From Betaproteobacteria bacterium (GTDB taxonomy: Bacteria; Pseudomonadota; Gammaproteobacteria; Burkholderiales; WYBJ01), in the NCBI GenBank assembly GCA_009377585.1, contig WHTS01000004.1, positions 11,874 through 75,873 of the forward strand: a stretch of 64,000 bases of DNA, given 5' to 3'. Of this stretch, positions 44,219 through 59,443 are shown piece after piece (the first letter of the stretch is position 1; the number at the start of each line of letters is the position of its first letter). The position numbers and the translations under genes are program-made. The notes under the pieces were generated by a model. The model was given only the letters and a program-made list of their open reading frames with translations. It made no database searches and was not told where the DNA came from.

Positions 44219-44360
44219 GGCGAGCGCGCTGTGATGAATCGGAATGTCCGATGCTACCTTAGCGGCCCGCATGCGCGGTAGCTATACTGCCGGCTGTTGC
44301 GCTCGGACTGACGGGGGTCGAGCGGCGACGTCAGATCGCAGAGCTCGAGAGGAGGCCGAC

Positions 44361-46505
44361 ATGCCCAGCCGCAAACTGAAGATCGCCGGTCGCGAGCTGA
44401 CGCTCGATGCGCGCCCCGACCGCCTGGATCTGCGCGACCTGCCGTTTCGTCCCGCGGTTCAGTCGCTGCCCGCCGTCTATCCGAGCGATGCCGGCGTGGC
44501 CGAATTGCTGCCGGCGTATCAGGGAGCCGATCTGGTCCTGGACCAGGGCCAGGAAGGTGCGTGCACCGGCTTCGGGCTCGCGGTCGTCATCAATTACCTC
44601 TTGTGGGTGCGTTCGAGCCACAAGATGACGTCCGCCGACAAGGTGAGCGAGCGCATGATCTATCACCTGGCGCGCTTCTACGACGAGTGGCCGGGCGAGG
44701 ATTACGAAGGCTCGAGCTGCCGCGGCGCGTTGAAAGGCTGGCATCGCCATGGCGTGTGCGGCGAATCGCTCTGGCCTTACCGCAACGCCGACGGCGAAGT
44801 GACGTTCGTCGCCCCGCAAAACGAATGGGAGCTCGACGCGGTGCGCCGCCCGCTCGGCGTGTACTACCGCGTGGAACGCGAGTCGGTGGTCGATATCCAG
44901 GCAGCGATCCGGCAGACCGGGGCGGTGTACGTTTCGGCCACCGTGCACGAAGGCTGGGACGTGAAAACCGTGACCAAGCCGATATGCCACGACGCGCTGC
45001 CGACCATCAAGCCCAGCCGCAAGGGTCTCGGCGGGCATGCGTTCGCGCTGGTCGGTTACAACAACGTCGGCTTCATCGTGCAGAACTCCTGGGGGAAAAC
45101 CTGGGCCGCGTCGGGGTTCGCGGTGCTTCCCTATGAGGAATGGGTGCTGTGGGGAACCGATGCCTGGGTGGTCGGATTGGGCGCCCCGATCACGGCCGGT
45201 ACCAGGACGCGCAGCAACGTGCGCTCGATCGCGCCGCCGCGGCGTCACTTCATTCCGCCCTCGGCCCGTAACGCGCCGGCGAGCTCCGGGCTGTCGAGCC
45301 TGTTCCGCGGCGCACGCGACAAGTTCGCCGACAAGAAAGGTGTGTGGAGCAGCGACTACGCCTACAACCACACGCTGGTCACAGCCAACGACGGGCGCAC
45401 CGTCAATCGCCTGCTGCACGTCGCCAACGAGGACAAGAACACCGAGTACGTGGCGCTCACCAAGCCGCTGGAGTGGTTCGGGCAGCGGCCGCAGGGCGAG
45501 CCGTGGCGCCTGCTGGTGTACGCGCACGGCGGCCTCAATTCGGAAGAAGACTCGATCCAGCGCATCCGGCTGCTGGGCCCGCAGATCGAAGCGAATGCAA
45601 TCTACCCGCTGTTCGTGACCTGGAAGAGCGGCTGGCAGGAAACGATCGCCAACATGCTCGAGGACGGCTTCCAGTCCGAGTTCGGCCAGAGGGCGCCGGC
45701 CGAAGGGCTCGGCGAGGCAATGAGCGAAGCGACCGATCGCGCCGTCGAAGTGCTCTCGCGTCAGGTGCTGGCACGCAGCCTCTGGTCGGAGATGAAGGAG
45801 AACGTCGCCCGCGCCGCAGCCTCGGACCGCGGATTCTGTCTGCTCGCAAATCGCATCAAGGAACTGGCCGCGAAGGCAGACGGCAAGCTCGAAATCCACC
45901 TCGTGGGGCATTCGGCCGGGTCGTACGTACTCGGGCGCCTGCTCGGCGAGCTGGGCGTCGATCCGGTCGTGAAGGCGGCGTCGTGCACGCTGTACGCGCC
46001 GGCGTGCGACCTGGAATTTGCGCTCACGTACTTCAAGCCCGCCGTCGAGGGCGGCTGCCTGCCGGGCTCGGCGTTTCGGGTGCACCTGTTGAACGACAAG
46101 CTCGAGCGCGCCGACAGCATCGGCCCCTACCGCAAGTCGCTGCTCTATCTGGTGAGCCGTGCGCTCGAGCGCTGGCACAAGACGCCGTTGCTCGGGCTGG
46201 CGATTGCTTGGGATTCGCAGTATGCGGGCGAGGAACACTGGCACAAAGACACCCTGGAGCACGTGCGGCAGTGGCAAGCCTTCGCCTGGCCCGGCGAAAC
46301 CCGGCCGGGCGATTTCGCCGAACAAGGCAAGCCCGCTCCGGGCGGCTATCTGGCAGTGTTGAATGCGAGGCAAGTCGACTGCGGACCGCGCAAGATCGCG
46401 TCCACTCACGGCTGCTTCGACAACAGCATCGAAGTCGTGGGCCGCACGTTGAAGTGCATCCTGGGCAGCGAGCTGACGAAGAATCTCGACGATCTCGATT
46501 TCTGA
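44361..46505 (+). CDS. Papain-like (C1) cysteine peptidase fused to a C-terminal alpha/beta-hydrolase domain
   Basis: DQGQEGACTGF, GGHAFALVGY, FIVQNSWG (Q/C/H/N present); AHGGLN, VGHSAGS, STHGCFD; GAGGAGG RBS; no signal peptide visible. Confidence 0.85.
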   Translation: MPSRKLKIAGRELTLDARPDRLDLRDLPFRPAVQSLPAVYPSDAGVAELLPAYQGADLVLDQGQEGACTGFGLAVVINYLLWVRSSHKMTSADKVSERMIYHLARFYDEWPGEDYEGSSCRGALKGWHRHGVCGESLWPYRNADGEVTFVAPQNEWELDAVRRPLGVYYRVERESVVDIQAAIRQTGAVYVSATVHEGWDVKTVTKPICHDALPTIKPSRKGLGGHAFALVGYNNVGFIVQNSWGKTWAASGFAVLPYEEWVLWGTDAWVVGLGAPITAGTRTRSNVRSIAPPRRHFIPPSARNAPASSGLSSLFRGARDKFADKKGVWSSDYAYNHTLVTANDGRTVNRLLHVANEDKNTEYVALTKPLEWFGQRPQGEPWRLLVYAHGGLNSEEDSIQRIRLLGPQIEANAIYPLFVTWKSGWQETIANMLEDGFQSEFGQRAPAEGLGEAMSEATDRAVEVLSRQVLARSLWSEMKENVARAAASDRGFCLLANRIKELAAKADGKLEIHLVGHSAGSYVLGRLLGELGVDPVVKAASCTLYAPACDLEFALTYFKPAVEGGCLPGSAFRVHLLNDKLERADSIGPYRKSLLYLVSRALERWHKTPLLGLAIAWDSQYAGEEHWHKDTLEHVRQWQAFAWPGETRPGDFAEQGKPAPGGYLAVLNARQVDCGPRKIASTHGCFDNSIEVVGRTLKCILGSELTKNLDDLDF

Positions 46506-46515
46506 GACGACGTTC

Positions 46516-48318
46516 ATGCCTGCAGCGGTGCACAACGCCGGCAACCGGGACGAAAGCCCGCGCTCGCTCGCCGAGCGCGTGCGCCGCGAGCAGATCCGCG
46601 CGCTTTACGAAGAGCTGCCCTTCTCCGCACTCGGGATGACGATCGGCGGCGTGATCGTGGTCGCGGGCCTGTGGCAATCGAATACCCCGCGCTCGCTCAT
46701 GATCCTGTGGCTGGGATTGATCGCCGCCAACCAGAGCTGGCGACTGCTGCTGTATCGGCAGTTCCAGCGCGCCGAGCCGGCAACGCGCAGCACCGGGCTG
46801 TGGGGGCGGCGCTGGGCGCTGGGTGCGCTCTATTCGGGCCTGACGTGGGGATCGAGCGCGCTGTTCATGTTCGATCCGGCCAGCGCGAACTACCAGGCCT
46901 ATCTGGTGATCTGCCTGGTCGGAGTCACTGCCGGCGCGCTGGCGCTGGTCACCATCGACCTGCGCTCGTTCTTCCTCTTCATCGTCCCTACCTTGTTGCC
47001 GATCACGGCGCGGCTGGTGGCCGAAGCCGATCGCATGCATCTCTGGATGGCGGCGGTCTGCGCGCTGGTGCTGTGCGTACTGATCAAGTTCGGCCTGAAG
47101 CTCAACCGCGAGCTCGAGCAATCGCTATACAACCGCTTCTTGCTCGACGACGAACGGCGCCTGGCCGAGCGCGCGCGCCAGCAAGCGGAAGTTGCGACGC
47201 AGGCCAAGTCGAAGTTCCTGCAGGCGACCAGTCACGATCTGCGCAACGACGTGCAGGCGATCAGCCTGCTCACCGACCAGCTGGCGCAGGCGAATCACGA
47301 TCCGAAGCAGCATGAGCGCGTGGCCGCCATCGCCGCCTCGGCGCGCACGGTGGGGCGGCTCGCCGACGACCTGCTGTCGGTATCGCGTCTGGATGCGGGC
47401 GATATCCAGCCGTTCGTGACCGCAGTCGCGCTGCAGCCGCTGTTCGACTCGATCGAGCTGGAGTTCGGCCACCTCGCCGCCCAGCAGGGCATCGCGCTTC
47501 GCATCCAACCGACGCCGCTCGCCGTGACGACCGATCGCATGCTGCTCGAACGCATCGTGCGCAACCTGGCGAGCAACGCCGTGCGCTATACGCGCTCCGG
47601 CGGCAGCGTCGAGATCGGCGTGCACGCCGAGGATAACGCAGTGCGGATCGAAGTCCGCGACACCGGCATCGGGATCGCGCCGCAGGACCAGCAACGCATC
47701 TTCGACGAGTTCTATCAGGTGGCGGGCAGCGCAGCCAGCAAAGGGCTGGGCATCGGATTGTCGATCGTGCAGCGCTTCGTCGAGCTGCTCGGCCACCGCT
47801 TGACGGTCGAGTCGATGCCCGGCCGCGGCTCCACCTTCGGCATCCACCTGGCGGCGGCCGCCGCTCCGGCGCCCGAATCGGTGCACGAGCCGGCGCTGCC
47901 CAATCCGCTGCGAGGACGGGTCGCCTTACTGGTGGACGACGATGCGGCGGTCCTGAGCGGCATGGCCGACAAATTGAGGAGCTGGGATCTCGAGGTGTTC
48001 GCGGCGACCGATGCCGACCAGGCGCTGGCTGCCCTGGAAGGCGCACGGCACGTCCCGGCGCTCATCGTCGCCGACTACCAGCTGGGCACGGACGAGAACG
48101 GGATCGCGCTGGTGGATCGTGTCCGCAGCCGTTTCGCGAGCCCGATCCCGGCGCTGCTGGTGACCGGCTACGGCGGCGACGAGCACCGCGCGCCGGCCGC
48201 GGCGCGCGGCATTCGCATTCTCGCAAAGCCGGTCAAGCCGGCCCAGCTGCGGCTCGCGCTGGAAGATGCGCTCAGAATCGAGGGCTCGCGCTGGGAGACG
48301 CGCTCAGTACCGAGCTGA
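46516..48318 (+). CDS. Membrane hybrid sensor histidine kinase/response regulator
   Basis: About 5-6 N-terminal TM helices; ATSHDLR H-box; NLASNAVRYT, DTGIGI, F, GLGIGLS boxes; C-terminal REC domain (VDDD, ADYQL, KPV). Confidence 0.92.
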   Translation: MPAAVHNAGNRDESPRSLAERVRREQIRALYEELPFSALGMTIGGVIVVAGLWQSNTPRSLMILWLGLIAANQSWRLLLYRQFQRAEPATRSTGLWGRRWALGALYSGLTWGSSALFMFDPASANYQAYLVICLVGVTAGALALVTIDLRSFFLFIVPTLLPITARLVAEADRMHLWMAAVCALVLCVLIKFGLKLNRELEQSLYNRFLLDDERRLAERARQQAEVATQAKSKFLQATSHDLRNDVQAISLLTDQLAQANHDPKQHERVAAIAASARTVGRLADDLLSVSRLDAGDIQPFVTAVALQPLFDSIELEFGHLAAQQGIALRIQPTPLAVTTDRMLLERIVRNLASNAVRYTRSGGSVEIGVHAEDNAVRIEVRDTGIGIAPQDQQRIFDEFYQVAGSAASKGLGIGLSIVQRFVELLGHRLTVESMPGRGSTFGIHLAAAAAPAPESVHEPALPNPLRGRVALLVDDDAAVLSGMADKLRSWDLEVFAATDADQALAALEGARHVPALIVADYQLGTDENGIALVDRVRSRFASPIPALLVTGYGGDEHRAPAAARGIRILAKPVKPAQLRLALEDALRIEGSRWETRSVPS

Positions 48319-48425: not shown

Positions 48426-48947
48426 TCAATCGAGCAGCTCCAGCTCGCCGATCAGCTCACCGCGCTGCGAAGAAACGACGAACCCGGCACGCGCGAGCAT
48501 CTCGCGTTCCGCATCGACCTCGGCCTTGGAGTACGCCACCAGGCTCGCCAGGCCCGACCGCCGCGCCCAGCGCACCGCCCGCCCGATACACTGCGCGCAG
48601 GCGCCATGCGCCCAATCTCCGGGCCAGGCGGTATACCACAGCTCCGCCCATCCGAGCAGGCGAGAAACCCGGTGCACCTGCGCGGTGGCGATGATCGGTC
48701 CCTGCCCGATGCGAGCGGCGACGACCTGGTCGGTCGAGAAGTCGGCCTGGCCGAATGCCGGCACGGTGCACAACTCGCCGAGCGTGCCCCAGCCGATGCT
48801 GGCACGCATTGCGGCGAGGCTGCGGCAGTGGGCCGTCAAGTCCTCGCGATCCGAAGCGCCGAGCGTGACCAGATCGTATCCGGCGGAATAGATCAGGCGC
48901 GGTCGGGATGCCCCGCCCTCGGCCGATATCATCGGACGCGCGCTCAT
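48426..48947 (-). CDS. Hypothetical protein, possibly a degenerate GNAT fold
   Basis: ATG overlaps the upstream stop (ATGA). C-terminal pattern AVRWARRSGLASL....AEREMLARAGF resembles GNAT motifs A/B. Confidence 0.55.
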   Translation of the reverse strand: MSARPMISAEGGASRPRLIYSAGYDLVTLGASDREDLTAHCRSLAAMRASIGWGTLGELCTVPAFGQADFSTDQVVAARIGQGPIIATAQVHRVSRLLGWAELWYTAWPGDWAHGACAQCIGRAVRWARRSGLASLVAYSKAEVDAEREMLARAGFVVSSQRGELIGELELLD

Positions 48948-49180
48948 GGCTGGTAGGCCGCGACCGCGATGCTCGCGCGTTGCGGCGCGATCGAATCGGC
49001 CGACAAGCCCGCCGCCGCCATCCGTTCCACGTCGCCCGGTCCGATGAGATAGATGCCGGTGGCGCACACGGCCCACAATCCGATTGCCGAACCGAGAAAA
49101 CGCAGCCGTTCGCTGCGCTGCGATTCATCCCGCCTGTCACGTCGTTTGTCACGTCGCCTGAACCTGTATTCCGTGTTCAT
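48944..49180 (-). CDS. Small single-TM hypothetical protein (78 aa)
   Basis: AAGGAGG RBS; Arg-rich N-terminus followed by hydrophobic FLGSAIGLWAVCATGIYLIG; coupled to the next gene. Confidence 0.7.
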   Translation of the reverse strand: MNTEYRFRRRDKRRDRRDESQRSERLRFLGSAIGLWAVCATGIYLIGPGDVERMAAAGLSADSIAPQRASIAVAAYQP

Positions 49181-49282
49181 GTCCGCCTCCTTGTTATCCG
49201 TTCGACGAGGGCTGCAGCATGGCCTTGCTGCAGGGCGTCATACTGCGGCGACAATTTGGCGGACACCATTGGACCGACGGGT

Positions 49283-49387
49283 TACGACCAAGGTCGAAAC
49301 ACGCATGCGAAGCGGTGCGTAGCGATATCTGCGAGCGTCCGAACCGCTGCGGGCTGAGGTGCCGGCTACCTGCCGACCTTGGTCGGC
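49283..49387. promoter_or_regulatory. Two palindromic operator-like boxes in a divergent promoter region
   Basis: TACGACCAAGGTCGAA (49283-49298) and GCCGACCTTGGTCGGC (49372-49387); the same core occurs at 58420-58435. Confidence 0.6.
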
Positions 49388-49476
49388 GGCGCAGCGGACA
49401 CGGATCCAGCCTCGCACCGTCCCCGCCTGCGGCCGAAATCGTCTAGACTTCGCGCAAACCAAGATTCGGGGGATGG

Positions 49477-50202
49477 ATGCAGGTTCTCGTGGTCGACGAC
49501 CACCCGCTGTTGCGCTCGGCGCTGAAGGAAGCGATCAAGGACCTCGATGACGAAGTCGATGTCATCGAAGGCCGCGACGCGGCGGACGCCCTGCGGCTCG
49601 CCCGCGACCATCCCGGGCTCGACCTCGTCCTGCTCGACTACGCCCTTCCGGATGCCGACGGGGCCACGGTGCTGGCGGAGCTGAAGGCCGCGCACCCGAC
49701 GTTGCCGATCATCGTCATCTCGGGCTTCGACGGGCGCGAGATCGTGACGGCAGCGATGAATGCCGGCGCCTCCGGTTTCATTTCCAAGGGCTCGACGCCG
49801 AAGCTCATCGTCACGGCCATCCGCCTGGTGCTCGACGGCGGCAAGTACGTGCCGGAGAGCATGATGCCTGGCTCCGGCACGGCGGCGGCGCGCGTGGTTC
49901 CGCTCGCGCGTGGCACGACCAATGCCGAGGCCCTGGCGCGCTTGCGCAACCTCCTCACGCCGCAGGAGCTGCGCGTGCTGGGTTTGCTGCTCAAGGGCTA
50001 CAGCAACAAGGAGATCGCGCGCGCCATCGGCAAGGAGATCCCCTCGCAGCGCGGCAGCTCCATCGCGGAATCGACCGTCAAGGCGCACATGACCAACATC
50101 CTGCGCGCGCTCGACGTGGAGCGGCGCACGCAAGCCGCGCTGGCGGTGGAGCGGCTCGGCGTGCACGCGCACGACCTGCTCGGCGGCGAGGACAAGGCTT
50201 GA
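49477..50202 (+). CDS. NarL/LuxR-family response regulator
   Basis: VVDDHPL, LLDYALPD, FISKG; C-terminal LTPQELRVL..L..GYSNKEIAR...ESTVKAHMTNILRAL.V..RTQA. Confidence 0.93.
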   Translation: MQVLVVDDHPLLRSALKEAIKDLDDEVDVIEGRDAADALRLARDHPGLDLVLLDYALPDADGATVLAELKAAHPTLPIIVISGFDGREIVTAAMNAGASGFISKGSTPKLIVTAIRLVLDGGKYVPESMMPGSGTAAARVVPLARGTTNAEALARLRNLLTPQELRVLGLLLKGYSNKEIARAIGKEIPSQRGSSIAESTVKAHMTNILRALDVERRTQAALAVERLGVHAHDLLGGEDKA

Positions 50203-50239
50203 GCCCGACGCTGCACCCGCGCGCGTAGTCCATCCTATC

Positions 50240-51769
50240 GTGCGTGTCGGCATCGTGTCCGCTTTCGTCGACTACCATCGGCGCGGCGCGCACCACCGCG
50301 GCGTGCTGCAACCCCAGGTCGGTCCCCTGCTCGCCGCCTTGCTGCCCGCCGGCGTCGAGGTCGACGTGGTCAACGACGCCTGGACCGACCCCGACTGGGC
50401 GCGGGACTACGATCTGCTGCTGATCTCCTGCCTGCACTCGGACTTCGATCGGGCGCGGCAGATCTCGCACTATTGGCGCCGCCGCGGGGCAAAGACCGTG
50501 CTCGGGGGCATCATGGCGAGCACTTTCCCCGGCGTATGCGCACCCTGGTTCGACGCTATCGTCATCGGCGATCCGGAAGACACGGTGCCGCGTCTGGTCG
50601 ACGATTTCGCCCGCGGCAACCTGCAGCCGGTGTACCGCTCGCGCGGCTACCGTCCGGCTGCCGTGCCCACGCCGAAAGTCGAATTGATGGCCGAGCAGCA
50701 GCTTCTGCCGCTCGGGCTCGAAGCCACCCGCGGCTGCAATTTCGCCTGCGACTTTTGCGCCCTGACCGCCGCCGGCACCCGCTTCGAAACCCGGCCGGCC
50801 GGCCACGTGGTCCGCGATCTGATCGCGATGCGCGCAGCACTCGGTGCGCGCGCGCGCTGGCCGCGCGATGCCATGGTGATCTTCTACGACAACAACATCG
50901 GCGGCAATCCGCGTTATCTCGCCAGCCTCGCGCAGGCGCTCTCGCGCCTGAACATCCGCTGGGGGTCGTGCATCACCTTCAACGCAGCCGACGATGAGCA
51001 GCTCATCGCCACGCTGGCGCGCTCCGGCTGCCGCTATCTCTACGTCGGCCTCGAAAGTTTCAACGCACGCACCTTACGCAGCATGAACAAGCGCCAGAAC
51101 GTGATCGCCCGCACCCACACCATGATCCGGCGCTGTCACCGGCTAGGGATTCTGCTCGATGCCGGCCTCATGCTGAGCCCGCTCGAGGACGACCTCGAGT
51201 ACGTGCGCGCCATCCCCCGCCTGCTGGACGAAAGCGGCTTGAAGGTGCCGAGTTACATCTGTTTCGAGACGCCGATTCCCGGCACGCCGCACTTCCACAA
51301 GCTGGCCGCGTCGAAGACGCCCGCGCTGCTGCCCAATGCGCTGCTGCGCGACTTCAGCACCTACACCCTGGTGACGCGGCCGCGGCATGCGCCGGCAGCG
51401 GAATTCATCGCCGCCTACAAGACGCTCATCGCGGAAGTTTTCGCGCCGGCACGGCGCGCGCGCAAGCTCGCGCACGACGCACGCAGGCTGCTCCCCGACG
51501 GCGGCTGGTTCGCCTGGGCGCTCGATTGCGCCGCGCAGTACTGGAACGCCTACCGGCCCGATCCCGATCGAACCTATCTCGCCGGCAGCGATCGGGCGCC
51601 GCCCGAGGCCGAACGTATCCCGTTCGCTCCGGACGACTTCCGCGACGAGGAGGAGCTCGAGGCCATCATGAAACCCTGGGCCGTAGCCGATTGCAACGGA
51701 TTCGTATTGCCGCAGTGGCTCGGCGCGACACCGGCTCATGAGCGCAAGCGCCGGGCGTCGGTCGCCTGA
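50240..51769 (+). CDS. Radical SAM protein with N-terminal B12-binding-like domain
   Basis: KTVLGGIMAS, IGDPE; EATRGCNFACDFC (CxxxCxxC); FYDNN, YVGLES, TPIPGTP. Confidence 0.88.
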   Translation: MRVGIVSAFVDYHRRGAHHRGVLQPQVGPLLAALLPAGVEVDVVNDAWTDPDWARDYDLLLISCLHSDFDRARQISHYWRRRGAKTVLGGIMASTFPGVCAPWFDAIVIGDPEDTVPRLVDDFARGNLQPVYRSRGYRPAAVPTPKVELMAEQQLLPLGLEATRGCNFACDFCALTAAGTRFETRPAGHVVRDLIAMRAALGARARWPRDAMVIFYDNNIGGNPRYLASLAQALSRLNIRWGSCITFNAADDEQLIATLARSGCRYLYVGLESFNARTLRSMNKRQNVIARTHTMIRRCHRLGILLDAGLMLSPLEDDLEYVRAIPRLLDESGLKVPSYICFETPIPGTPHFHKLAASKTPALLPNALLRDFSTYTLVTRPRHAPAAEFIAAYKTLIAEVFAPARRARKLAHDARRLLPDGGWFAWALDCAAQYWNAYRPDPDRTYLAGSDRAPPEAERIPFAPDDFRDEEELEAIMKPWAVADCNGFVLPQWLGATPAHERKRRASVA

Positions 51770-51866
51770 GCTAGCCCGGATATTTCACCGGGCCGGCTCG
51801 GAACGGGACCAATGCCCTGCGTAAAGAAATGCTTATCGAGCGTTCCCTATTTCATGTCACGCTCGT

Positions 51867-51903
51867 CCCTCACCCTCAACCCCTCTCCCGGGGGGAGAGG
51901 GGA
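51867..51903. repeat. CCCTCTCCC/GGGAGAGGG REP element
   Basis: CCCTCACCCTCAACCCCTCTCCC...GGGAGAGGGGA, same family as 27402, 31460, 57303. Confidence 0.8.
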
Positions 51904-52034
51904 GCGTCGCGTCCGTATTGGACTGTCGTCCAATACGGAACGATCAATAAGAAGTGATTGTCAGTTCCAACTTGTACGTCGGCCTGCACGGGCGCTGGCG
52001 GCTCGATGAAATGTCCGGGCTGGACGGCGATCGA

Positions 52035-52982
52035 TCATGTTTTCACTTCGTTCAGCAGCGGGTGTGCGTCGCGCAGCCGCCGGCAGTTCTCGATCGCGAC
52101 GTCGAGGCTGCGCGCGAGCGTTTCCGCTGTGAGCCACGCCACGTGCGGCGTCATCACCACGTTGTCGAGTCGTGCGAGCGCGAGCCCGGCGCCGGCCGGC
52201 TCGACCGCCAGCACATCCACGCCCGCCGCGCGCAGCCGCCCCGACTGCAGCGCCTGCACCAGGGCCGCCTCATCGACCAGACCGCCGCGGGCCGTGTTCA
52301 CGAGCACCGCGCCGGGCTTCATGCGCGCAAGGGCGGCTGCGTCGATCATGCGCTCTGTTTCCGGGGTGAGCGGCACGTGCAGCGATACGATGTCGGCTGC
52401 AGCCAGCAGCTGCGGCAGCGCGAGGAATTCGCCGCCGGCTTCGGCCTTGCGGCTTCGGGCGGTGTACAACACACTGGCACCGAGGGCCTGCAATACGGGC
52501 GCGAGCCGCCGTGGCACCTCGCCGTAGCCGATCAATCCGACCGTGCGGCCCGCGATCTCGCCGACCGGGTCGAGGTTTTCCGGCGGCAGCGTCCAGCCCC
52601 GGCATTCGCGCGTGGCGCGATCGAGCAAGGGAATGCGGCGCAGCGCCGCCAGCATGAGCGCCAGCGTCATCTCGGCCACCGCCTGGCTGTTGGTCCCGGG
52701 CATGTTGGCGACGGCGATGCCACGAGCGCGCGCGGCGTCGAGATCGATCGTGTTCACGCCGACCCCGATCTTCTGGATCAGGCGCAGCCGCGGCGCGGCC
52801 GCGATCATCGCCGCGCTGACCGGCGTCAGCACGTGCAGGAGCACTTCGGCATCCAGCATCTCGCGGCGAAAGGCGGCTTCGTCGGCTTCGTCGACGATTG
52901 CAACCTCCAACCAATCGGGCGCAGCGGCGAGCAGCTGCTGCCGAAATGCCGGGCTCGCGCGAAAGTGCAGCACCGCCTTCAT
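52035..52982 (-). CDS. D-isomer-specific 2-hydroxyacid dehydrogenase
   Basis: GVGVNTID, NMPGTNSQAVAE, GLIGYG, LHVPLTPET, NTARGGLVDE, DVLAVEP, TPHVAW; ATGA overlap with the enolase. Confidence 0.92.
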   Translation of the reverse strand: MKAVLHFRASPAFRQQLLAAAPDWLEVAIVDEADEAAFRREMLDAEVLLHVLTPVSAAMIAAAPRLRLIQKIGVGVNTIDLDAARARGIAVANMPGTNSQAVAEMTLALMLAALRRIPLLDRATRECRGWTLPPENLDPVGEIAGRTVGLIGYGEVPRRLAPVLQALGASVLYTARSRKAEAGGEFLALPQLLAAADIVSLHVPLTPETERMIDAAALARMKPGAVLVNTARGGLVDEAALVQALQSGRLRAAGVDVLAVEPAGAGLALARLDNVVMTPHVAWLTAETLARSLDVAIENCRRLRDAHPLLNEVKT

Positions 52983-54268
52983 GGCGTTCGCTCGCGCGGC
53001 GCGAGGACGCTACGTCCGGCATAACGGGCGGCCGGGCCGAGCGCCTGTTCGATGCGCAGGCCCTCGTTCCACTTCGCCATGCGCTCGGAGCGAGCAAACG
53101 ATCCGACCTTGAGCTGGCCGCAGTTCCAGCCCACCGCCAGATGCACGATGCTGGCATCTTCGGTTTCGCCCGAGCGCGCCGACACGATCGTTGCGAAACC
53201 GTGCGCCCGCGCGGCCACCAACGCTTGCTTCGTTTCGGTGATGGTTCCGGCCTGGTTGGGCTTGAGCAGCACGGCGTTGCACGCGCCCGCCCGGGCCGCT
53301 TGTGCGATGCGCTCGGCGTTGGTCACCAAGTAGTCGTCGCCGATGATCTGCACGCTCGCACCGGCCGCGCGCGTGAAGGCTTGCATGCCGGTTGCGTCGT
53401 CTTCCGCCACCGGGTCCTCGATGGAAACGATCGGATAACGTGCGAGCCACGCCAAAAGCTGGTCGAGCCATTCGCCGCTATCCAGCTCGCGCCCTTCCAG
53501 CCCCAGCCGATAGCGGCCGTCATGGCCGAATTCGGATGCGGCGATGTCGAGCGCGATGGCGACCTCGCCGTTGCGGTAGCCCGCGGCCTCGATCGATTGC
53601 GCCAGGGCCGCCAGCGCCTCCTCGTTGGAATCGAACTGCGGCCACCAACCGCCCTCGTCGGCCACGCCAGCCCGGCGCCCTCGCCGTTCCATCCAGACAC
53701 CGGCGTGGCGATAGACTTCGGCGCACATCACCAGCGCCTCGTCGAACGATGCGGCGCCCACGGGCATTACGAGGAAATCCTGGATGTCGACACGGCGGCC
53801 GGCGTGCGCGCCGCCGCCGAAGATCTGGATCTGCGGCAGCGGCAGCGTGACCTCGCCGTCGCTCGCGAGATAGCGCCACAACGGCTGCCCGGCCCCAGCG
53901 GCAGCCGCCTGCAGCACCGCGCACGAGGTCGCGATCGTCGCGTTGCCGCCCAGGCGCGCCTTGTTCGGCGTCGCATCGAGCGCGACGAGCACCCGGTCAA
54001 CGCCTTCCTGGTCCAAGGCGTCCAGTCCCTGCAGCGCCGGCGCAATCGTGGTGTTCACGTTCCGCAATGCGTGCGAGACGCCGAATCCTCCCAACGCCTC
54101 GCCGCCGTCGCGCAGATCGACCGCTTCGTGCGTGCCGCGGGAGGCCCCGGCCGGCGCCATGCCGCGGCCGCGTGCGCCGCATGCCAGCGCCACCTCCACC
54201 TCGACCGTGGGCCGCCCACGCGAGTCCCAGATCCGGCGGGCCGTGACCTGCTCGATTCTCGTGCTCAT
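52979..54268 (-). CDS. eno: Enolase paralogue with altered active-site residues
   Basis: DSRGRPTVEVEV, GASRG, GGAHA, DEGG, LDIAASEF, SIEDP, GDD, KPNQ, RSGETED, QLKVG, RSERMAKWN; QDF replaces QEF and SARSG replaces SHRSG. Confidence 0.88.
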   Translation of the reverse strand: MSTRIEQVTARRIWDSRGRPTVEVEVALACGARGRGMAPAGASRGTHEAVDLRDGGEALGGFGVSHALRNVNTTIAPALQGLDALDQEGVDRVLVALDATPNKARLGGNATIATSCAVLQAAAAGAGQPLWRYLASDGEVTLPLPQIQIFGGGAHAGRRVDIQDFLVMPVGAASFDEALVMCAEVYRHAGVWMERRGRRAGVADEGGWWPQFDSNEEALAALAQSIEAAGYRNGEVAIALDIAASEFGHDGRYRLGLEGRELDSGEWLDQLLAWLARYPIVSIEDPVAEDDATGMQAFTRAAGASVQIIGDDYLVTNAERIAQAARAGACNAVLLKPNQAGTITETKQALVAARAHGFATIVSARSGETEDASIVHLAVGWNCGQLKVGSFARSERMAKWNEGLRIEQALGPAARYAGRSVLAPRERTP

Positions 54269-55332
54269 GCTGCGCTACGCTCGGCCCAAAGTTCGCGGAT
54301 GGCACCGAGCCGCCCCACCGGATCGACCAACAACCCGCACGCAAACGTTCGCACCCGCGCGCGCTGCGCCTCGTCCGTCAGGTACTCCACCGGCGATTTG
54401 CCATCCACCCGCGCCAGCAGCATGCCGGCAAGCAATCGACAGGCGCGCGCTTCCAGGGCTGCCGGCGGCTCCCACGCCACGCCGGCGACATAGGACGCGA
54501 CGAACGTATCGAAGCAAGCCAGATAATCGGCGCGGTGCGCCGGACGCCACAGGCACTTCAACAGCAGGTGCGTCAGGCAGAACGCCGCGTCGAATGCCGG
54601 ATCGCCGTACCACGCGCATTCCGCATCCAGCAGCACAGGCCCGGCGGGTCCGACCAGGATGTTCTTCGGGCTCACGTCGCCGTGCACCAGTGCCAGTCGC
54701 GTCGCCGCGGTGGTCTCGATCAGCGCCAACAGCGCCGGCGCACAATCGGGATTGGTTTCGGCGGCCGCGGCGAAATAGGCAGACAGGCGCAGGGCGCGAA
54801 ACGCCGTGTCGTCGGCGAATCGATGCGCGATGTCGGCACGGCCCGCGGTCGCGGCCTGGATGTGCACCAGGGTTGCAGCAACCGCCGCAGCCGTGTCGGT
54901 GCGCACGCAGCCGTCGCGCAGCTGCTGCTTCCATACCGGGTAGGTCTCGGGCGGCAGATAGTGCATCGCGAACGCGCGAGCGAGCGGATCTTCGCCCAGA
55001 ATCTGCGGAACCGCTGCGGGTGCCGTTTGGGCGGCGACCCGGATCCAGGCAACTTCGGCGGCGTTGCGCTCGACCGGCGCGAACCAGGCGGCAGCCACCT
55101 TCAGGCGCGGCAGCGCGCGCTTGACGCACACGGGCCCGCGCGCAGTATCAGCGCGCACGATCCTGGACGAGACACCGCCCTCCAACTCGGTCAGTTGGGG
55201 CAACTCGTGCGCATCGACCAGCCCCATGCGCTTGAGCGACGCCACGAATTCGACGCCATCGTCCGCACGCTCCGCCGGCTTCTGCGCAACGCTATCGCGC
55301 GACTGAGCGTCCGGTCGATCACGCATCTCCAT
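54265..55332 (-). CDS. APH/choline-kinase-fold phosphotransferase (methylthioribose-kinase-like)
   Basis: LEGGVSS, VCVKRALPRLKV, LVHGDVSPKNILV, LLDAECAWYGDPAFD; stop overlaps the enolase start. Confidence 0.85.
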   Translation of the reverse strand: MEMRDRPDAQSRDSVAQKPAERADDGVEFVASLKRMGLVDAHELPQLTELEGGVSSRIVRADTARGPVCVKRALPRLKVAAAWFAPVERNAAEVAWIRVAAQTAPAAVPQILGEDPLARAFAMHYLPPETYPVWKQQLRDGCVRTDTAAAVAATLVHIQAATAGRADIAHRFADDTAFRALRLSAYFAAAAETNPDCAPALLALIETTAATRLALVHGDVSPKNILVGPAGPVLLDAECAWYGDPAFDAAFCLTHLLLKCLWRPAHRADYLACFDTFVASYVAGVAWEPPAALEARACRLLAGMLLARVDGKSPVEYLTDEAQRARVRTFACGLLVDPVGRLGAIRELWAERSAA

Positions 55333-55400
55333 GGTCCCGTCTCAGAAGCTACGCCCCTCTGAAGTAGATAACACACAGACGATTCGAGCAAGATCGGAGC

Positions 55401-55454
55401 GAAAATGGGGACGCACACACTTTCCGCAGCGAAATTGTGTGCGTCCCCATTTTC
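55401..55454. repeat. Long inverted repeat (MITE/REP-like)
   Basis: Perfect 18-19-bp arms GAAAATGGGGACGCACAC / GTGTGCGTCCCCATTTTC with an inner mini-hairpin. Confidence 0.8.
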
Positions 55455-55487
55455 CCGCGCGCCAGTACGCCGGGCGGACGGCGAAAG

Positions 55488-55522
55488 CAAAAAGTCCCTT
55501 GACCCGCGAGGACCAAGGGACT
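55488..55522 (-). terminator. Intrinsic terminator after the ThDP-enzyme gene
   Basis: Minus strand AGTCCCTTG-12 nt-CAAGGGACT followed by TTTT, 20 bp after the stop. Confidence 0.65.
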
Positions 55523-55541
55523 CTTGTCGGCGCAGCAGGTC

Positions 55542-57197
55542 TTACTCGTCGCGGCCGTAGTGGATGCGCCGGTAGGGGATGCTCGGCACGGTACGCGAGA
55601 TGCGCACGTCGATCACCATGGGGCCGGGCTTGGCGACCCATTCTTTCACCGCCGTGCGCAGCTGGTCGTTGTGCGTCACCAGCGATCCACGCCCGCCCAT
55701 CGCGACCGCCACCGCGCCCAGATCGGGCGTCGGAATGACCGAGGTCATGGCATCCATCTTCTTCGCATCGAGCTTGTAATACTCGGCGCCAAGACACTGG
55801 TTGTTCATGACCACCACCAGCAACGGCATCTTGTAGCGCACCGCCGTCTCGAACTCGGCCAGGTGCATGAGGTAGCTCGCATCGCCGTCGATCAAGCACA
55901 GCGGCGTGTAGTCGGAGGCGACGATCGCACCCATCGCCGCCGGCAGCATCTGGCCGATGCAACCGAAGAAATGGCCCGCCTGCGTGATGGCGCGCGGACG
56001 CGTCATCAGCATGCTCGAAATGCCCGAGGTCATGCCGCTGCCGGAGAGCACGCCGATGCTCGGCGGCAGCAGCTCTTCCAGCGCGATCATCGATTCGCGC
56101 GGGTCCACCGTGCCCGGATCGATCGGAAACTCGGTCCGATCGGCGTTGTGGTTCGCGAGCTTGTTCTTTACGTCGGGCGTGCGATAGCCGATGTTCTTGT
56201 GCGACTTCTCGGCCAGCAGCTTCTCCAGCGCCTCGACCGCGATGCGCGCATCCGACTGGATGTAGAGGTCGGAGAACTTGCCGTTGGCCATCGCCACGTG
56301 CTGCTGGTTGTCGATCTGAACGTACTTGGCGTTCGGATACAGATAGCCGTTTTCGAGCGTGTGGCGGTTCAGGCTCGCGCCCACGCCGATCACCACGTCG
56401 GCCTCTTCCAGCAGCTTCATCGCCGGGCGGGTTGCGTACAGGCCGGAAATGCCGGCGTGATATTCGGTCTGATCGGAGAGATAAGTCTTGGCCAGGAGCG
56501 ACGTTGCGATTAGGGCGCCGATGCGCTCGCCGAGCTTGAGCACGGCGGGGCCGGCTCCGGCCCATTGCGCGCCGCGCCCCACGATGATCACGGGGTGCTT
56601 GGCGGAAGCGATGAGATCGGCCGCACGCTCCAATTCCTTCGCGTCGGGCATTACCGTGCGCGCTTTGAACAGCTCCGACGTCGGCTGATACGGCTCGTCG
56701 GCATCCTCGAATTCCTTCTGCTGGATGTCCATCGGACAGCTCAGCATAATGGGACGGCGCTCGAGCTTGGCCAGATAGAACGCCTTGCGCACGCAGTCGT
56801 CGGTCTGCTCGGGGTTCTGCAGTCGCACGAAGCCGGCCTCGCACGCCTCGGCGAAGCGCGACTGGTCGAGGTATTGCGTGTACTCGGGATCGCTCCACGG
56901 ATATTCACCGCAGAACGCGACCACCGGCGAGTGCGCACGCGCGGCAGTGACGAACGCCGTGGCAAGCTGGGTCGTGCCCGGGCCGCAGGTGGCCGTCGCG
57001 ACGCCAGGTTTGTTGGCCGTGCGGGCGAAGCCGTCGGCCATTCCGAGCCCCGCGCCCTCGTGCCGCACCTCGTGCACCTTGACGCCGATCTTGTGCAGCT
57101 CGGAAATCCAGAACATGTTGCCGTCGCCCATCATGCCGAAGGTCGACGTGACGCCTTCGCCTTTGAATGCATGAGCCAGCCGCTGGTAGACCTTCAT
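55542..57197 (-). CDS. Thiamine-diphosphate-dependent enzyme (acetolactate synthase-like superfamily)
   Basis: FGMMGDGN, VRHEGAGLGMADG, TCGPG, IVGRGA, DGDASYLM...VVMNN. Confidence 0.9.
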   Translation of the reverse strand: MKVYQRLAHAFKGEGVTSTFGMMGDGNMFWISELHKIGVKVHEVRHEGAGLGMADGFARTANKPGVATATCGPGTTQLATAFVTAARAHSPVVAFCGEYPWSDPEYTQYLDQSRFAEACEAGFVRLQNPEQTDDCVRKAFYLAKLERRPIMLSCPMDIQQKEFEDADEPYQPTSELFKARTVMPDAKELERAADLIASAKHPVIIVGRGAQWAGAGPAVLKLGERIGALIATSLLAKTYLSDQTEYHAGISGLYATRPAMKLLEEADVVIGVGASLNRHTLENGYLYPNAKYVQIDNQQHVAMANGKFSDLYIQSDARIAVEALEKLLAEKSHKNIGYRTPDVKNKLANHNADRTEFPIDPGTVDPRESMIALEELLPPSIGVLSGSGMTSGISSMLMTRPRAITQAGHFFGCIGQMLPAAMGAIVASDYTPLCLIDGDASYLMHLAEFETAVRYKMPLLVVVMNNQCLGAEYYKLDAKKMDAMTSVIPTPDLGAVAVAMGGRGSLVTHNDQLRTAVKEWVAKPGPMVIDVRISRTVPSIPYRRIHYGRDE

Positions 57198-57229
57198 GAT
57201 TGCCCGCCCTCCGTGAAATGTGAAATCGA

Positions 57230-57378
57230 TTGTGCTTGTCTTCCCTCTCCCTTTGGGAGAGGGATCGAGGGTGAGGGAAATTATGCGCGATGCCGAAGAC
57301 TTCCCTCACCCCCAACCCCTCTCCCGGAGGGAGAGGGGAGCGTATTGCGGAAAGCGGCTTGTCAGCCACTTTCCGGAT
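57230..57378. repeat. REP doublet (inward-facing pair) plus second hairpin
   Basis: Arms at 57230-57279 and 57303-57340; CGGAAAGCGGC..GCCACTTTCCG hairpin at 57346-57378. Confidence 0.85.
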
Positions 57379-57380
57379 CG

Positions 57381-57851
57381 TCAATGAGCCGTCCCGACGC
57401 TCGCACAACGCGCCGCAAGCTGCTCCGAGAATTCCTTCGTCATGCGCTTCACCACCATGGAAGCGCCGGTTTCGATGAGCGACGCCAGCCGTCCGCTGAT
57501 CTCGACCTGAGCCTGGATGTCGATCGTTGAACCGGCCGCATCGCCTTCCCGGCCCTGAACCTTGAAGCCCATGGTGGTGTGAAAGCGCGCCCCGCCCTGA
57601 TTGTCCTTGCCCCTGGAGATCACCTTGCCGCTCATGCTCGGAGGGTCGTATTCGATCTCGACCTTGGCACGGAACGCGACCTTGGCCGGGCCGAACTTGA
57701 CCGTGATGCCGGCATCGTAGCTGCCGTCTTCGTGCTGGTCGCCGAGCGATGCGCCCGAGACGCATTCGACGACCGCGCGCGGATCGGACAGCAGCGACCA
57801 GACGGTCTTCGGATCCGAGGCTACCTCGATGGTCTCGCTGACTTCTATCAT
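57381..57851 (-). CDS. SRPBCC/CoxG-like ligand-binding protein
   Basis: VWSLLSDP..V.ECV.GA, G.ITVKFGP, ISGRLASL....A..V.KRMTKEF. Confidence 0.82.
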   Translation of the reverse strand: MIEVSETIEVASDPKTVWSLLSDPRAVVECVSGASLGDQHEDGSYDAGITVKFGPAKVAFRAKVEIEYDPPSMSGKVISRGKDNQGGARFHTTMGFKVQGREGDAAGSTIDIQAQVEISGRLASLIETGASMVVKRMTKEFSEQLAARCASVGTAH

Positions 57852-58031
57852 GACGGGGACAGCTCCGAACGGGAACGGGTGAAAAACGCACTGCGAAACG
57901 CACTGCGCTTGATCGCGCGATTGTAGCGGAGCGGCGCGGTTTTCACCCGCTTTCCGCGTGGCGATTCAGCCCGGATGTTCACGATGTGGTCGTTCGCGGC
58001 AAGCCCTCGCTGAAATCCGAACGGGCTGACT

Positions 58032-58337
58032 TGCAACTTCGATCCGTGGGATTCGATCTTCGAAGGCAACCCGCAGCGCATCCTCGAGCGGCGCGAAGCG
58101 GTGAGCCTGCCGCCGCTGCTCATCATGCAAGGCGAGCTGGACGACAACGTGCTGCCCGCTTTCCAGGAGAAATTCGCCGCGGCTTATCGTGCTGCCGGCG
58201 GCGAGTGCCAACTCGACATTTTCGCGGGCTGCGGCCACATCTGGGTCGCCGATCCGGGCCCGCAAACCGATCGCGCGCACGAAATGGTGAAAGCCTTCAT
58301 CGCGCGTAACCTGCGAGCGCTGCAACTCGCCGCGTAA
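58032..58337 (+). pseudogene. C-terminal remnant of an alpha/beta hydrolase (esterase/lipase-like)
   Basis: EGNPQRILER.E.V.LPPLLIMQGELDDNV, FAAAYRAAGG, GCGHIW; in-frame TGA at 58011; no nucleophile elbow and no good start/RBS. Confidence 0.65.
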
Positions 58338-58352
58338 CGCGCTTCACGAAGC

Positions 58353-58388
58353 TTCCCTCTCCCCCCGGGAGAGGGAAGACAACCATAC
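58353..58388. repeat. CCCTCTCCC/GGGAGAGGG REP element
   Basis: TTCCCTCTCCCCCCGGGAGAGGGAAGACAACCATAC shares its flank GAAGACAA.CATAC with the 27542-27590 copy. Confidence 0.78.
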
Positions 58389-58419
58389 CGCACGCAACGC
58401 ACCGGCGCAGCCGCAAGTG

Positions 58420-58435
58420 TTCGACCTTGGTCGAA
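58420..58435. promoter_or_regulatory. Palindromic operator-like box
   Basis: TTCGACCTTGGTCGAA; 15/16 identical to the reverse complement of 49283-49298. Confidence 0.6.
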
Positions 58436-58518
58436 CCTGAAATAGACCTCGGTGCAATTGTGTGCGCCGCGCCATGCTCTCAGTATCACAGCGTCATCCA
58501 CTGCAGGAGGACGCTGCG

Positions 58519-58641
58519 ATGTGGGATCTTCTGGTCGCGCTCGCCCAGGTGGTTTCGGCCCTGGCCTTGATCGCCGGCTTCGGGTTGATCGGCTGGTATG
58601 CGTGGTTTCGCTCGTTGGACGATCGTCTCGACGACCGATGA
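58519..58641 (+). CDS. Small single-TM protein (40 aa), not in the ORF track
   Basis: AGGAGG 8 nt before ATG; MWDLLVALAQVVSALALIAGFGLIGWYAWFRSLDDRLDDR*. Confidence 0.65.
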   Translation: MWDLLVALAQVVSALALIAGFGLIGWYAWFRSLDDRLDDR

Positions 58642-58783
58642 GCGCCGCCGCAGCGGGATCCGGGCGGCTGCGCTGCTCGGGGTCCCGCTGGAACATCCGC
58701 CCGCGCTGAAACGGGCACGCTCGACGCTAGCCGGCCAGGGACAGGCCGACAGCCCGGACGCCTGTCCGAAAACAGGAGCCCGC

Positions 58784-59443
58784 ATGTCCAGACCACTGGC
58801 CGGCGACGCCATGGACCAGCCGCTGAACGGCCGCAAGCATTTCAGCATGATTCGCAGTTTTCACCTGGCGGATTTCCTCACGCTCGGCAATGCTGCTTGC
58901 GGCGTGGCCGCGGTGTTGCTGGCGATGCATTACCTGACCAGCCACGACTTGCGCCACTTCTTCGCCGCTGCAGCGATGGCTCCGCTCGCATTCCTGTTTG
59001 ACGTGCTGGACGGAAAGGTCGCGCGCGCGCGCCACACCCATTCGGCGCTGGGACGCGAGCTCGATTCGCTCGCCGACGTGATTTCCTTCGGCGTGGCGCC
59101 GGCCGCGCTCGGATTCGCGGCCGGCTTGAGCGGCGGTTGGGATATCGCGGCTCTGATCTACTTCGTCTGCTGCGGCGTGAGCCGGCTCGCCCGCTTCAAC
59201 GTGACCGCCGAGGCGTTGTCCCAGGGCGGAGCGAAAGTCGCCTATTTCGAAGGCACACCCATTCCGACCAGCGTGATCCTGACCGCGGTGCTGGCCATCG
59301 CCGGCTGGCAGGGGCGTGTGGGCGAGGCGATCTACTGGGGCAGCGTCGGCATCGGCGGCTGGACGCTGCATCCGCTGGTATTACTGTTCGCGCTCTCCGG
59401 CACGCTGATGATCAGCAAGACCTTGCGTATTCCGAAGTGGTGA
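58784..59443 (+). CDS. pssA: CDP-alcohol phosphatidyltransferase (phosphatidylserine synthase type)
   Basis: ADFLTLGNAACG, FDVLDGKVAR, GRELDSLADVISFGVAP, RLARFN, FEGTPIP, LMISK; AGGAG RBS. Confidence 0.88.
   Translation: MSRPLAGDAMDQPLNGRKHFSMIRSFHLADFLTLGNAACGVAAVLLAMHYLTSHDLRHFFAAAAMAPLAFLFDVLDGKVARARHTHSALGRELDSLADVISFGVAPAALGFAAGLSGGWDIAALIYFVCCGVSRLARFNVTAEALSQGGAKVAYFEGTPIPTSVILTAVLAIAGWQGRVGEAIYWGSVGIGGWTLHPLVLLFALSGTLMISKTLRIPKW

Follow-up and report, generated by a model that had tools for sequence, protein, structure and literature searches.

Genes and Features at the Locus

We examined a stretch of 64,000 nucleotides (nt) from a Betaproteobacteria bacterium (contig WHTS01000004.1, positions 11,874 to 75,873), referred to here as the window, together with the rest of its genome (G000; 6.76 Mb, 65% G+C, 242 contigs). 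In the window, a hybrid sensor histidine kinase converges on a minus-strand pair formed by a 78-amino-acid (aa) open reading frame (ORF) and a 173-aa ORF, and a response regulator diverges from that pair; farther along lie a 40-aa hydrophobic ORF and a pssA-like gene (Table 1). Our subject is the inverted repeat CGACC(TT/AA)GGTCG, present in three copies (boxes 1 to 3) beside these genes. We consider it probable, though by no means certain, that the boxes are operators for the adjacent regulator, an ErdR/CrbR-like protein of the NarL/FixJ family. P1 and P3 denote the putative promoters of the 78-aa gene and the 40-aa ORF, respectively.

Table 1. Features of the locus, in window coordinates (TM, transmembrane; SD, Shine–Dalgarno sequence; HTH, helix-turn-helix; GC3, G+C content at third codon positions)
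Feature	Position	Strand	Sequence	Remarks
Hybrid sensor histidine kinase	46516..48318	+		~5-6 TM helices, HisKA, HATPase_c, REC (Pfam)
173-aa protein	48426..48947	-		GC3 frame analysis; ATGA overlap with 78-aa ORF at 48944-48947 (translationally coupled)
78-aa small single-pass membrane protein gene	48944..49180	-		SD AAGGAGG (strong)
-10-like element of P1	49240..49245	-	CAGTAT (plus strand ATACTG)	CA(G/A)(T/G)AT in all loci covering the site
Proximal degenerate ACTU-like site of P1	49268..49284	-	TAACCCGTCGGTCCAAT	predicted at about -51..-35; ends 22 nt before CAGTAT
Box 1	49283-49298		TACGACC-AA-GGTCGAA, TACGACCAAGGTCGAA	7-2-7 dyad; distal site of P1; 102 nt from ATG of 78-aa ORF
Variable spacer segment with box 2, 138 bp	49299..49436			flanked by CGAAA microhomology; unique in genome
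Box 2	49372-49387		GCCGACC-TT-GGTCGGC, GCCGACCTTGGTCGGC	89 nt upstream of regulator ATG; candidate autoregulatory site, facultative
Regulator core promoter block	49433..49457	+	CGAAATCGTCTAGACTTCGCGCAAA	-10-like TAGACT at 49444-49449
Response regulator, ErdR-like	49477..50202	+		REC and GerE/LuxR-type HTH; predicted phospho-acceptor Asp54
Alpha/beta-hydrolase (Peptidase_S9-like)	57927-58385			5'-truncated remnant upstream of box 3
Box 3	58420-58435		TTCGACC-TT-GGTCGAA, TTCGACCTTGGTCGAA	perfect 16-bp dyad; distal site of P3
Proximal degenerate ACTU-like site of P3	58442..58458	+	ATAGACCTCGGTGCAAT	predicted at about -51..-35; 22 nt before CAGTAT
-10-like element of P3	58481..58486	+	CAGTAT
40-aa hydrophobic ORF	58519..58641	+	MWDLLVALAQVVSALALIAGFGLIGWYAWFRSLDDRLDDR	SD AGGAGG at 58505-10; called as a gene on a JGI contig
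CDP-alcohol phosphatidyltransferase (pssA-like)	58784..59443	+		142 nt 3' of 40-aa ORF; Pfam and NCBIfam matches

Position and Rarity of the Box

The exact 12-mer stands at 49285-49296 (CGACCAAGGTCG), 49374-49385 and 58422-58433 (CGACCTTGGTCG), and these three copies are the ones reported in an initial annotation made from the letters of the window. That annotation placed them all in intergenic DNA upstream of small membrane-protein genes; all three are indeed intergenic, but box 2 lies upstream of the regulator gene. It was right that box 1 on the minus strand matches box 3 at 15 of 16 positions (TTCGACCTTGGTCGTA vs. TTCGACCTTGGTCGAA) and that there is a degenerate copy at 58443 (TAGACCTCGGTGCA), which corresponds to the proximal site of P3. 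Box 3 is close to the 40-aa ORF as described, the distance after the 16-mer being 83 nt and not 84 base pairs (bp). The word had been called a palindrome: it is in fact an inverted repeat whose 2-bp centre is asymmetric, TT and AA being one word on opposite strands, and the arms are longer than reported, extending in all three boxes to 7-2-7 inverted repeats (consensus TWCGACC-WW-GGTCGWA).

The 12-mer has an expected count of 0.01 in the window, in agreement with the earlier estimate of well below one chance hit, and none of 100 shuffles gave three copies. Across the genome, the TT/AA form has only nine copies; of the six copies outside the region, five lie within ORFs of coding-type GC3, the sixth being in a spacer on contig C85. 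With nine copies genome-wide, three within 9.2 kb are very unlikely by chance (C(9,3) x (9.2e3/6.76e6)^2, or ~2e-4 as a rough estimate). The symmetric 16-mer TWCGACCWWGGTCGWA is rarer still: genome-wide, only box 1 and box 3 match it perfectly, no site differs from it by one mismatch, and of the 19 sites with two mismatches 17 are coding. No comparable site was found in 1.35 Mb of unrelated response-regulator loci. Within the window, one-mismatch matches to the 12-mer at 57677 and 62726 are inside coding sequence and look like chance. A functionless chance clustering of a GC-rich word could draw on the fact that TCGACC..GGTCGA, when its centre is left free, is frequent in the coding DNA of this genome (seven perfect genome matches, six of them coding). 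Against it stand the expectation of 0.01, the restriction of the WW-centred 16-mer to these sites, conservation across 11 loci and co-occurrence with the regulator (see below), by which this explanation is effectively refuted.

An apparent second cluster on contig C50 was dismissed, as it is coding sequence (e.g., a P-type ATPase) in a low-GC3 contig missed by the coding mask. Membership of a mobile repeat, raised as a concern in the initial annotation, was rejected after BLAST searches against the genome, in which both spacers and the 138-bp segment gave self matches only; an abundant element resembling repetitive extragenic palindromic (REP) sequences lies beside box 3 and stops ~30 nt short of it. 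A related yet distinct dyad, the perfect palindrome TATGACC-AT-GGTCATA, occurs in apparently intergenic DNA on contig C63 (17181-17196) and is possibly the operator of another regulator.

A Promoter Module Common to P1 and P3

Read in the direction of their genes, P1 and P3 can be aligned over ~70 nt. The module consists, in order, of the perfect dyad, 5 or 13 nt, TCGGTsCAATkG, TGTsCGCC, 12 nt and CAGTATsAC. P1 and P3 have the same 22 nt between the second element and the -10-like sequence, and the composite pattern GGTsCAA-N21-25-CA[AG][TG]AT has intergenic matches in the genome only at P1 and P3. In both, a degenerate dyad, the proximal site of Table 1, has the second element as its right arm. 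If CAGTAT is the -10 element, this proximal site would occupy approximately -51 to -35 and abut a weak -35 sequence (TTGTGT or TGGTGT), the predicted transcription start being ~49233 (minus strand) for P1 and ~58493 (plus strand) for P3.

The promoter block of the regulator itself is also conserved. Its columns AATCGTCTAGACTT are invariant in nine orthologous loci, and L215 and L216 keep TAGACT with small changes around it. An 8-bp palindrome, GTCTAGAC, lies within AATCGTCTAGACTT, which may represent no more than the -10 region or may serve another factor as a binding site. For the regulator gene, transcription is predicted to start at ~49456 (plus strand).

Conservation across Orthologous Loci

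We compared the DNA of 11 orthologous spacers, at which the regulators are 78-97% identical, and took gene order, not DNA, from three JGI contigs. On the longer contigs the order is kinase, 168-173-aa gene, small ORF, regulator, radical SAM gene, COXG, 40-aa ORF and pssA, the kinase being syntenic in all long contigs. Looking upstream of orthologues had been suggested as a check on the box, and there box 1 is recognizable in 11 of 11 loci: nine have the exact 12-bp core, L193 has one mismatch, and L216 has a degenerate but ACTU-like form. The spacer around box 1 is diverged and contains indels. The distance from the centre of box 1 to the -10-like CA(G/A)(T/G)AT is 45.5-46.5 nt in all nine loci measured, and between the two lies the block GGTCCAATGG, which in ten loci is unchanged or differs at a single base; the L216 version is GGTTGAATGG.

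The core of box 2 is perfect in the window and in L216, the most divergent orthologue; L189 has no core mismatch and the centre TC, and L108 and L215 have one mismatch each. The 138-bp segment carrying box 2 is missing in G003 (whose 173-aa protein is 97% identical), in G001 and in L194. In these short-spacer forms, the CGAAA microhomology joins box 1 directly to the regulator core block AATCGTCTAGACTT (junction GGTCGAAATCGTC). Box 2 is facultative, since the indel removes it in close relatives. That the same junction is found not only in the very close G003 but also in G001 and L194, which are farther removed, points to recurrent deletion or exchange.

The indel bears on a further explanation, that the repeats are kept for a reason unrelated to transcription factors, as recombination or deletion hot spots, as remnants of a duplicated promoter cassette, or as RNA or DNA structure. 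The end of the 138-bp indel at the edge of box 1, within the CGAAA microhomology, fits a hot spot, and the similarity of P1 and P3 over ~70 nt could reflect one duplicated cassette. The constraint on box 1, however, is much stronger than that on its flanks, its spacing to the -10 element is fixed, and its sequence matches a validated class of operators (see below). Nor can a 5-7-bp stem with a 2-nt loop form a stable hairpin; we rejected a terminator or hairpin role for the boxes because none is predicted and the folds are no better than those of shuffled sequences. We regard this explanation as distinctly improbable.

Within the genus, box 3 and the 40-aa ORF are confined to members with the regulator. 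Both accompany it in the window genome, in G003 and on a JGI contig whose regulator is 94% identical, whereas in G002, G004 and G005 the regulator and the 173-aa gene are missing, and so are box 3 and the 40-aa ORF, pssA being kept at 76-78% identity. The same division holds for the spacer copy on contig C85, where two box-like dyads stand in tandem, CCGACCTACGTCTAC and the overlapping TACGACCAAGGTCGGG (C85:9499-9527; L209:500-528), 130 nt upstream of a gene for a 217-aa signal-peptide protein whose family was not recognized. At the orthologous place (L210, L211), the dyads are present in the three regulator-bearing genomes and absent from the three regulator-less ones. The C85 site is a candidate fourth target.

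The Regulator, Its Kinase and a Paralogue

The regulator matches the Pfam models Response_reg (6.4e-24) and GerE (1.3e-12), both above cut-off, which places it in the NarL/FixJ family with a LuxR-type HTH. Its best NCBIfam model is ErdR (NF041830; 2e-37, ~129 bits), ahead of NarL (1e-27, 96.6 bits). The protein is rare: among 30 relatives, a full orthologue was found in one genus member, G001, a metagenome-assembled genome (MAG) labelled Burkholderiaceae bacterium AOB1 that is the closest named relative, and the G003 copy is cut by a contig end. Thirteen metagenomic proteins are 78-94% identical to the regulator. The kinase, presumably the partner that phosphorylates the regulator, has as best NCBIfam match the NahK/ErcS family C-terminal model (303 bits vs. 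a cut-off of 400) and a hydrophobic N terminus of ~225 aa without an SLC5 match.

Several observations weigh against assigning the boxes to this regulator or against the promoter arrangement proposed. Its ErdR score is far below the curated cut-off of 390; no protein of the window genome reaches that value and none exceeds it in 200 class-level genomes, where two matches have 250 bits. Compared with a paralogue in the same genome, its HTH carries an insertion of ~10 aa (GKEIPSQRGSS, residues ~185-195, 50029-50061) before the recognition helix; given the low score and the insertion, the specificity of the regulator could differ. That paralogue, on contig C132, is itself ErdR-like and 45% identical to the regulator. 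A consensus scan predicts no sigma-70 promoters; the lack of a match is expected of activator-dependent promoters, and conservation is accordingly the sole basis of the -10 assignments. Looser matches to the box show no intergenic enrichment in the genome-wide scan that the initial annotation had proposed, for which reason we rejected a large genome-wide regulon; at most one further candidate, the C85 site, remains. L190, L193 and L110 have a degenerate box 2 and L126 has none, and the distance of box 2 from the regulator promoter varies from -58 to -87, values inconsistent with helical phasing, which we rejected. In the short-spacer forms, finally, box 1 would lie at ~-26 of the putative regulator promoter, a repressing and not an activating position.

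The C132 protein is the main other candidate for the binder: the boxes could be operators and yet be bound by this paralogue or another LuxR-type factor, with the local regulator acting on other targets. The paralogue scores as high against ErdR as the regulator does (132.8 vs. 128.3 bits), its HTH is canonical and lacks the 10-aa insertion, and ACTU-type sites reflect specificity at the level of the family. Its orthologues, however, are found in all five genus relatives, hence in six of six genus genomes, whereas the C85 boxes and the combination of box 3 and the 40-aa ORF are found only alongside the local regulator. None of the four paralogue loci inspected from genus relatives contains the strict core word CGACCWWGGTCG. 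Boxes 1 and 2, moreover, lie in the divergent promoter region of the local regulator, which also argues against the paralogue. We consider binding by the paralogue or another such factor unlikely, if still worth keeping in view.

Comparison with Known Systems

The box resembles operators of the CrbS/CrbR system (also MxtR/ErdR). Activation by CrbR (=ErdR) requires the ACTU inverted repeat TACnACCWWnGTCGAAT at -52..-36 of acs (PMC5715377), and experimentally supported ACTU sites include TACTACCATCGTCGAAT, TAATACTAAGGTCGTCT, CTAGACTTACGTCCAAT and CGCTACCATGGTCGAAT (PMC5715377, Sepulveda & Lupas 2017). ErdR binds its target promoters in electrophoretic mobility shift assays (PMC9927353). A full-text literature search for the exact box word found the CrbR paper, the remaining matches being unrelated primers. 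Box 1 (TACGACCAAGGTCGAAA) is of the same sequence type as this operator and shares 13 of 17 positions with the acs site of the CrbR paper; the proximal sites, at ~-51..-35 from the predicted starts, would abut the -35 sequence much as the published site does at -52..-36; the regulator is of the LuxR/NarL type with ErdR as best family model; and both kinases are hybrids of a histidine kinase and a REC domain. There are also differences. The regulator reaches 129 of 390 bits and has the HTH insertion, and the kinase combines a short multi-TM sensor with a NahK/ErcS-like core, where CrbS has SLC5-STAC-PAS. The predicted targets are small membrane-protein genes instead of acs and actP, and a perfect distal dyad is added upstream of the proximal site. 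The 500 nt preceding each of the two acs homologues in the window genome contain no box-like or ACTU-like site, and an acetate regulon was rejected on this ground. The comparison supports an ErdR/CrbR-like regulator with putative ACTU-type operators, a different sensor and a small local regulon, distinct from CrbS/CrbR.

Upstream of the second acs homologue (contig C196, ~15130-15230), we observed four tandem units of ~21 nt (CCCGATGGAGACTTCCCAA/GG) between two REP-like palindromes.

Other systems share single aspects. NarL belongs to the same regulator superfamily, and its sites have the same layout of two inverted heptamers separated by 2 bp; its heptamer is TACYYMT, unlike TWCGACC here, and its model scores below ErdR. 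At uhpT, the NarL-family activator UhpA uses a high-affinity distal site and a low-affinity site beside the -35 element. The presumably strong distal and weak proximal sites of P1 and P3 resemble this arrangement in mechanism only, the DNA sequence and the regulon being unrelated, and the analogy suggests a cooperative, phosphorylation-dependent filling of the sites. Small membrane proteins induced by two-component systems include MgrB and SafA. The predicted products here would likewise be linked to a two-component system, as putative single-pass membrane proteins of 40-80 aa with putative response-regulator sites in their promoters; they have no sequence similarity to MgrB or SafA, and feedback on the kinase is pure speculation.

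Proposed Regulation and Its Meaning

The initial annotation had proposed that the boxes are the binding site of the local response regulator and define a small regulon. Architecture, rarity, conservation, spacing, the promoter module common to P1 and P3, co-occurrence with the regulator and likeness to ErdR/CrbR lend this proposal computational support. Most likely, the neighbouring two-component regulator switches on the two small membrane-protein genes and tunes its own expression; we infer the identity of the binder, the direction of regulation and the transcription starts from the DNA and its comparison across loci.

In such a scheme, a dimer of the phosphorylated regulator would occupy the perfect distal dyad, box 1 at ~-57 of P1 and box 3 at ~-65 of P3, and would help to fill, cooperatively, the weaker ACTU-like site that abuts the poor -35 sequence. 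From the proximal site, the regulator could recruit sigma-70 RNA polymerase as a class II activator, turning on the operon of the 78-aa gene and the GNAT-like 173-aa gene as well as the 40-aa ORF, and transcription from P3 may read into the pssA-like gene. Box 2, at ~-76 from the putative TAGACT promoter, would provide autoregulation, and in short-spacer forms box 1 would modulate the regulator promoter instead; box 2 appears dispensable because the natural 138-bp deletion variants place box 1 over that promoter.

By analogy with the systems above, one may go further and picture a membrane-homeostasis loop. The kinase would sense a membrane or lipid cue, the regulator would induce two small membrane proteins, these would act back on the kinase in the manner of MgrB and SafA, and read-through from P3 would raise phosphatidylserine synthase. 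Autoregulation would be wired differently from lineage to lineage through the facultative box 2 and the repeated loss of the 138-bp segment, and the C85 site would extend the regulon. As a whole, we find this loop doubtful and offer it as a speculative extension.

If the boxes are operators of the regulator, they provide a concrete operator, a promoter architecture and a mini-regulon for an uncharacterised two-component system of an uncultured soil lineage. They would also suggest that ACTU-type recognition is common to divergent ErdR/CrbR paralogues and has been re-deployed to other kinases and targets, and the natural long- and short-spacer variants offer a ready comparison of autoregulatory wiring. 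The circuit is nevertheless of an ordinary kind, and the view of how such systems work is unchanged.

The 40-aa ORF and Its Surroundings

G003 has kept box 3, which marks the point where its homology with the window starts again. The alpha/beta-hydrolase gene, a remnant in the window, has its full length in G003 (L022:619-1482). After the remnant stands an inserted REP-like palindrome (CTTCCCTCTCCCCCCGGGAGAGGGAAG, 58350-58378), with similar elements at 57240-57345 and hundreds genome-wide. The coding status of the 40-aa ORF is plausible, not proven. Its frame, SD and hydrophobicity are kept in G003, with ten nucleotide differences in nonsynonymous codons and three in synonymous ones. Compared with L195, it is the fastest-evolving part of the locus (identity 89%, vs. 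97% in the promoter and ~98% in the spacer that follows), and the changes are mostly conservative hydrophobic replacements. A search for homologues of the 40-aa peptide returned only the peptide itself.

A terminator scan between the 40-aa ORF and the pssA-like gene predicted none, and the latter is a possible read-through target of P3. A GC-rich hairpin with a stem of ~18 bp and no U tract lies just 3' of the ORF (58651-58690), and a second one (GGACAGGC...GCCTGTCC) directly precedes the SD of pssA. The two may be attenuator or translational elements; their folding energy is no better than that of shuffled sequences.

Genes around Boxes 1 and 2

The 78-aa protein has a basic N terminus, a conserved TM core (RFLGSAIGLWAVCATGIYLIGPG) and a variable tail. 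Because the frame and the TM core are kept in nine loci, with orthologues of 71-78 aa, we take the ORF to be a real gene. The 173-aa protein is weakly GNAT-like (Pfam Acetyltransf_3, E=0.013, below cut-off), and its orthologues have 168-173 aa. At the predicted 5' end of the small-gene mRNA, we noticed an inverted repeat with an 8-bp stem, CTGCAGCA-N6-TGCTGCAG (49212..49233, minus strand). It appears as a hairpin in the centroid structure, no better than shuffled sequences; a double change in L193 (TGCAAC...GTTGCA) keeps the pairing, and L108 and L110 are without one arm.

On the other side, a B12-binding radical SAM gene 3' of the regulator (50240-51769) has weak matches to methyltransferase models for lipids and for ribosomally synthesized and post-translationally modified peptides (RiPPs), and a papain-like protease fusion at 44244-46505 is part of the conserved neighbourhood. 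The radical SAM enzyme, the protease fusion and the small ORFs could in principle form a peptide-modification cluster.

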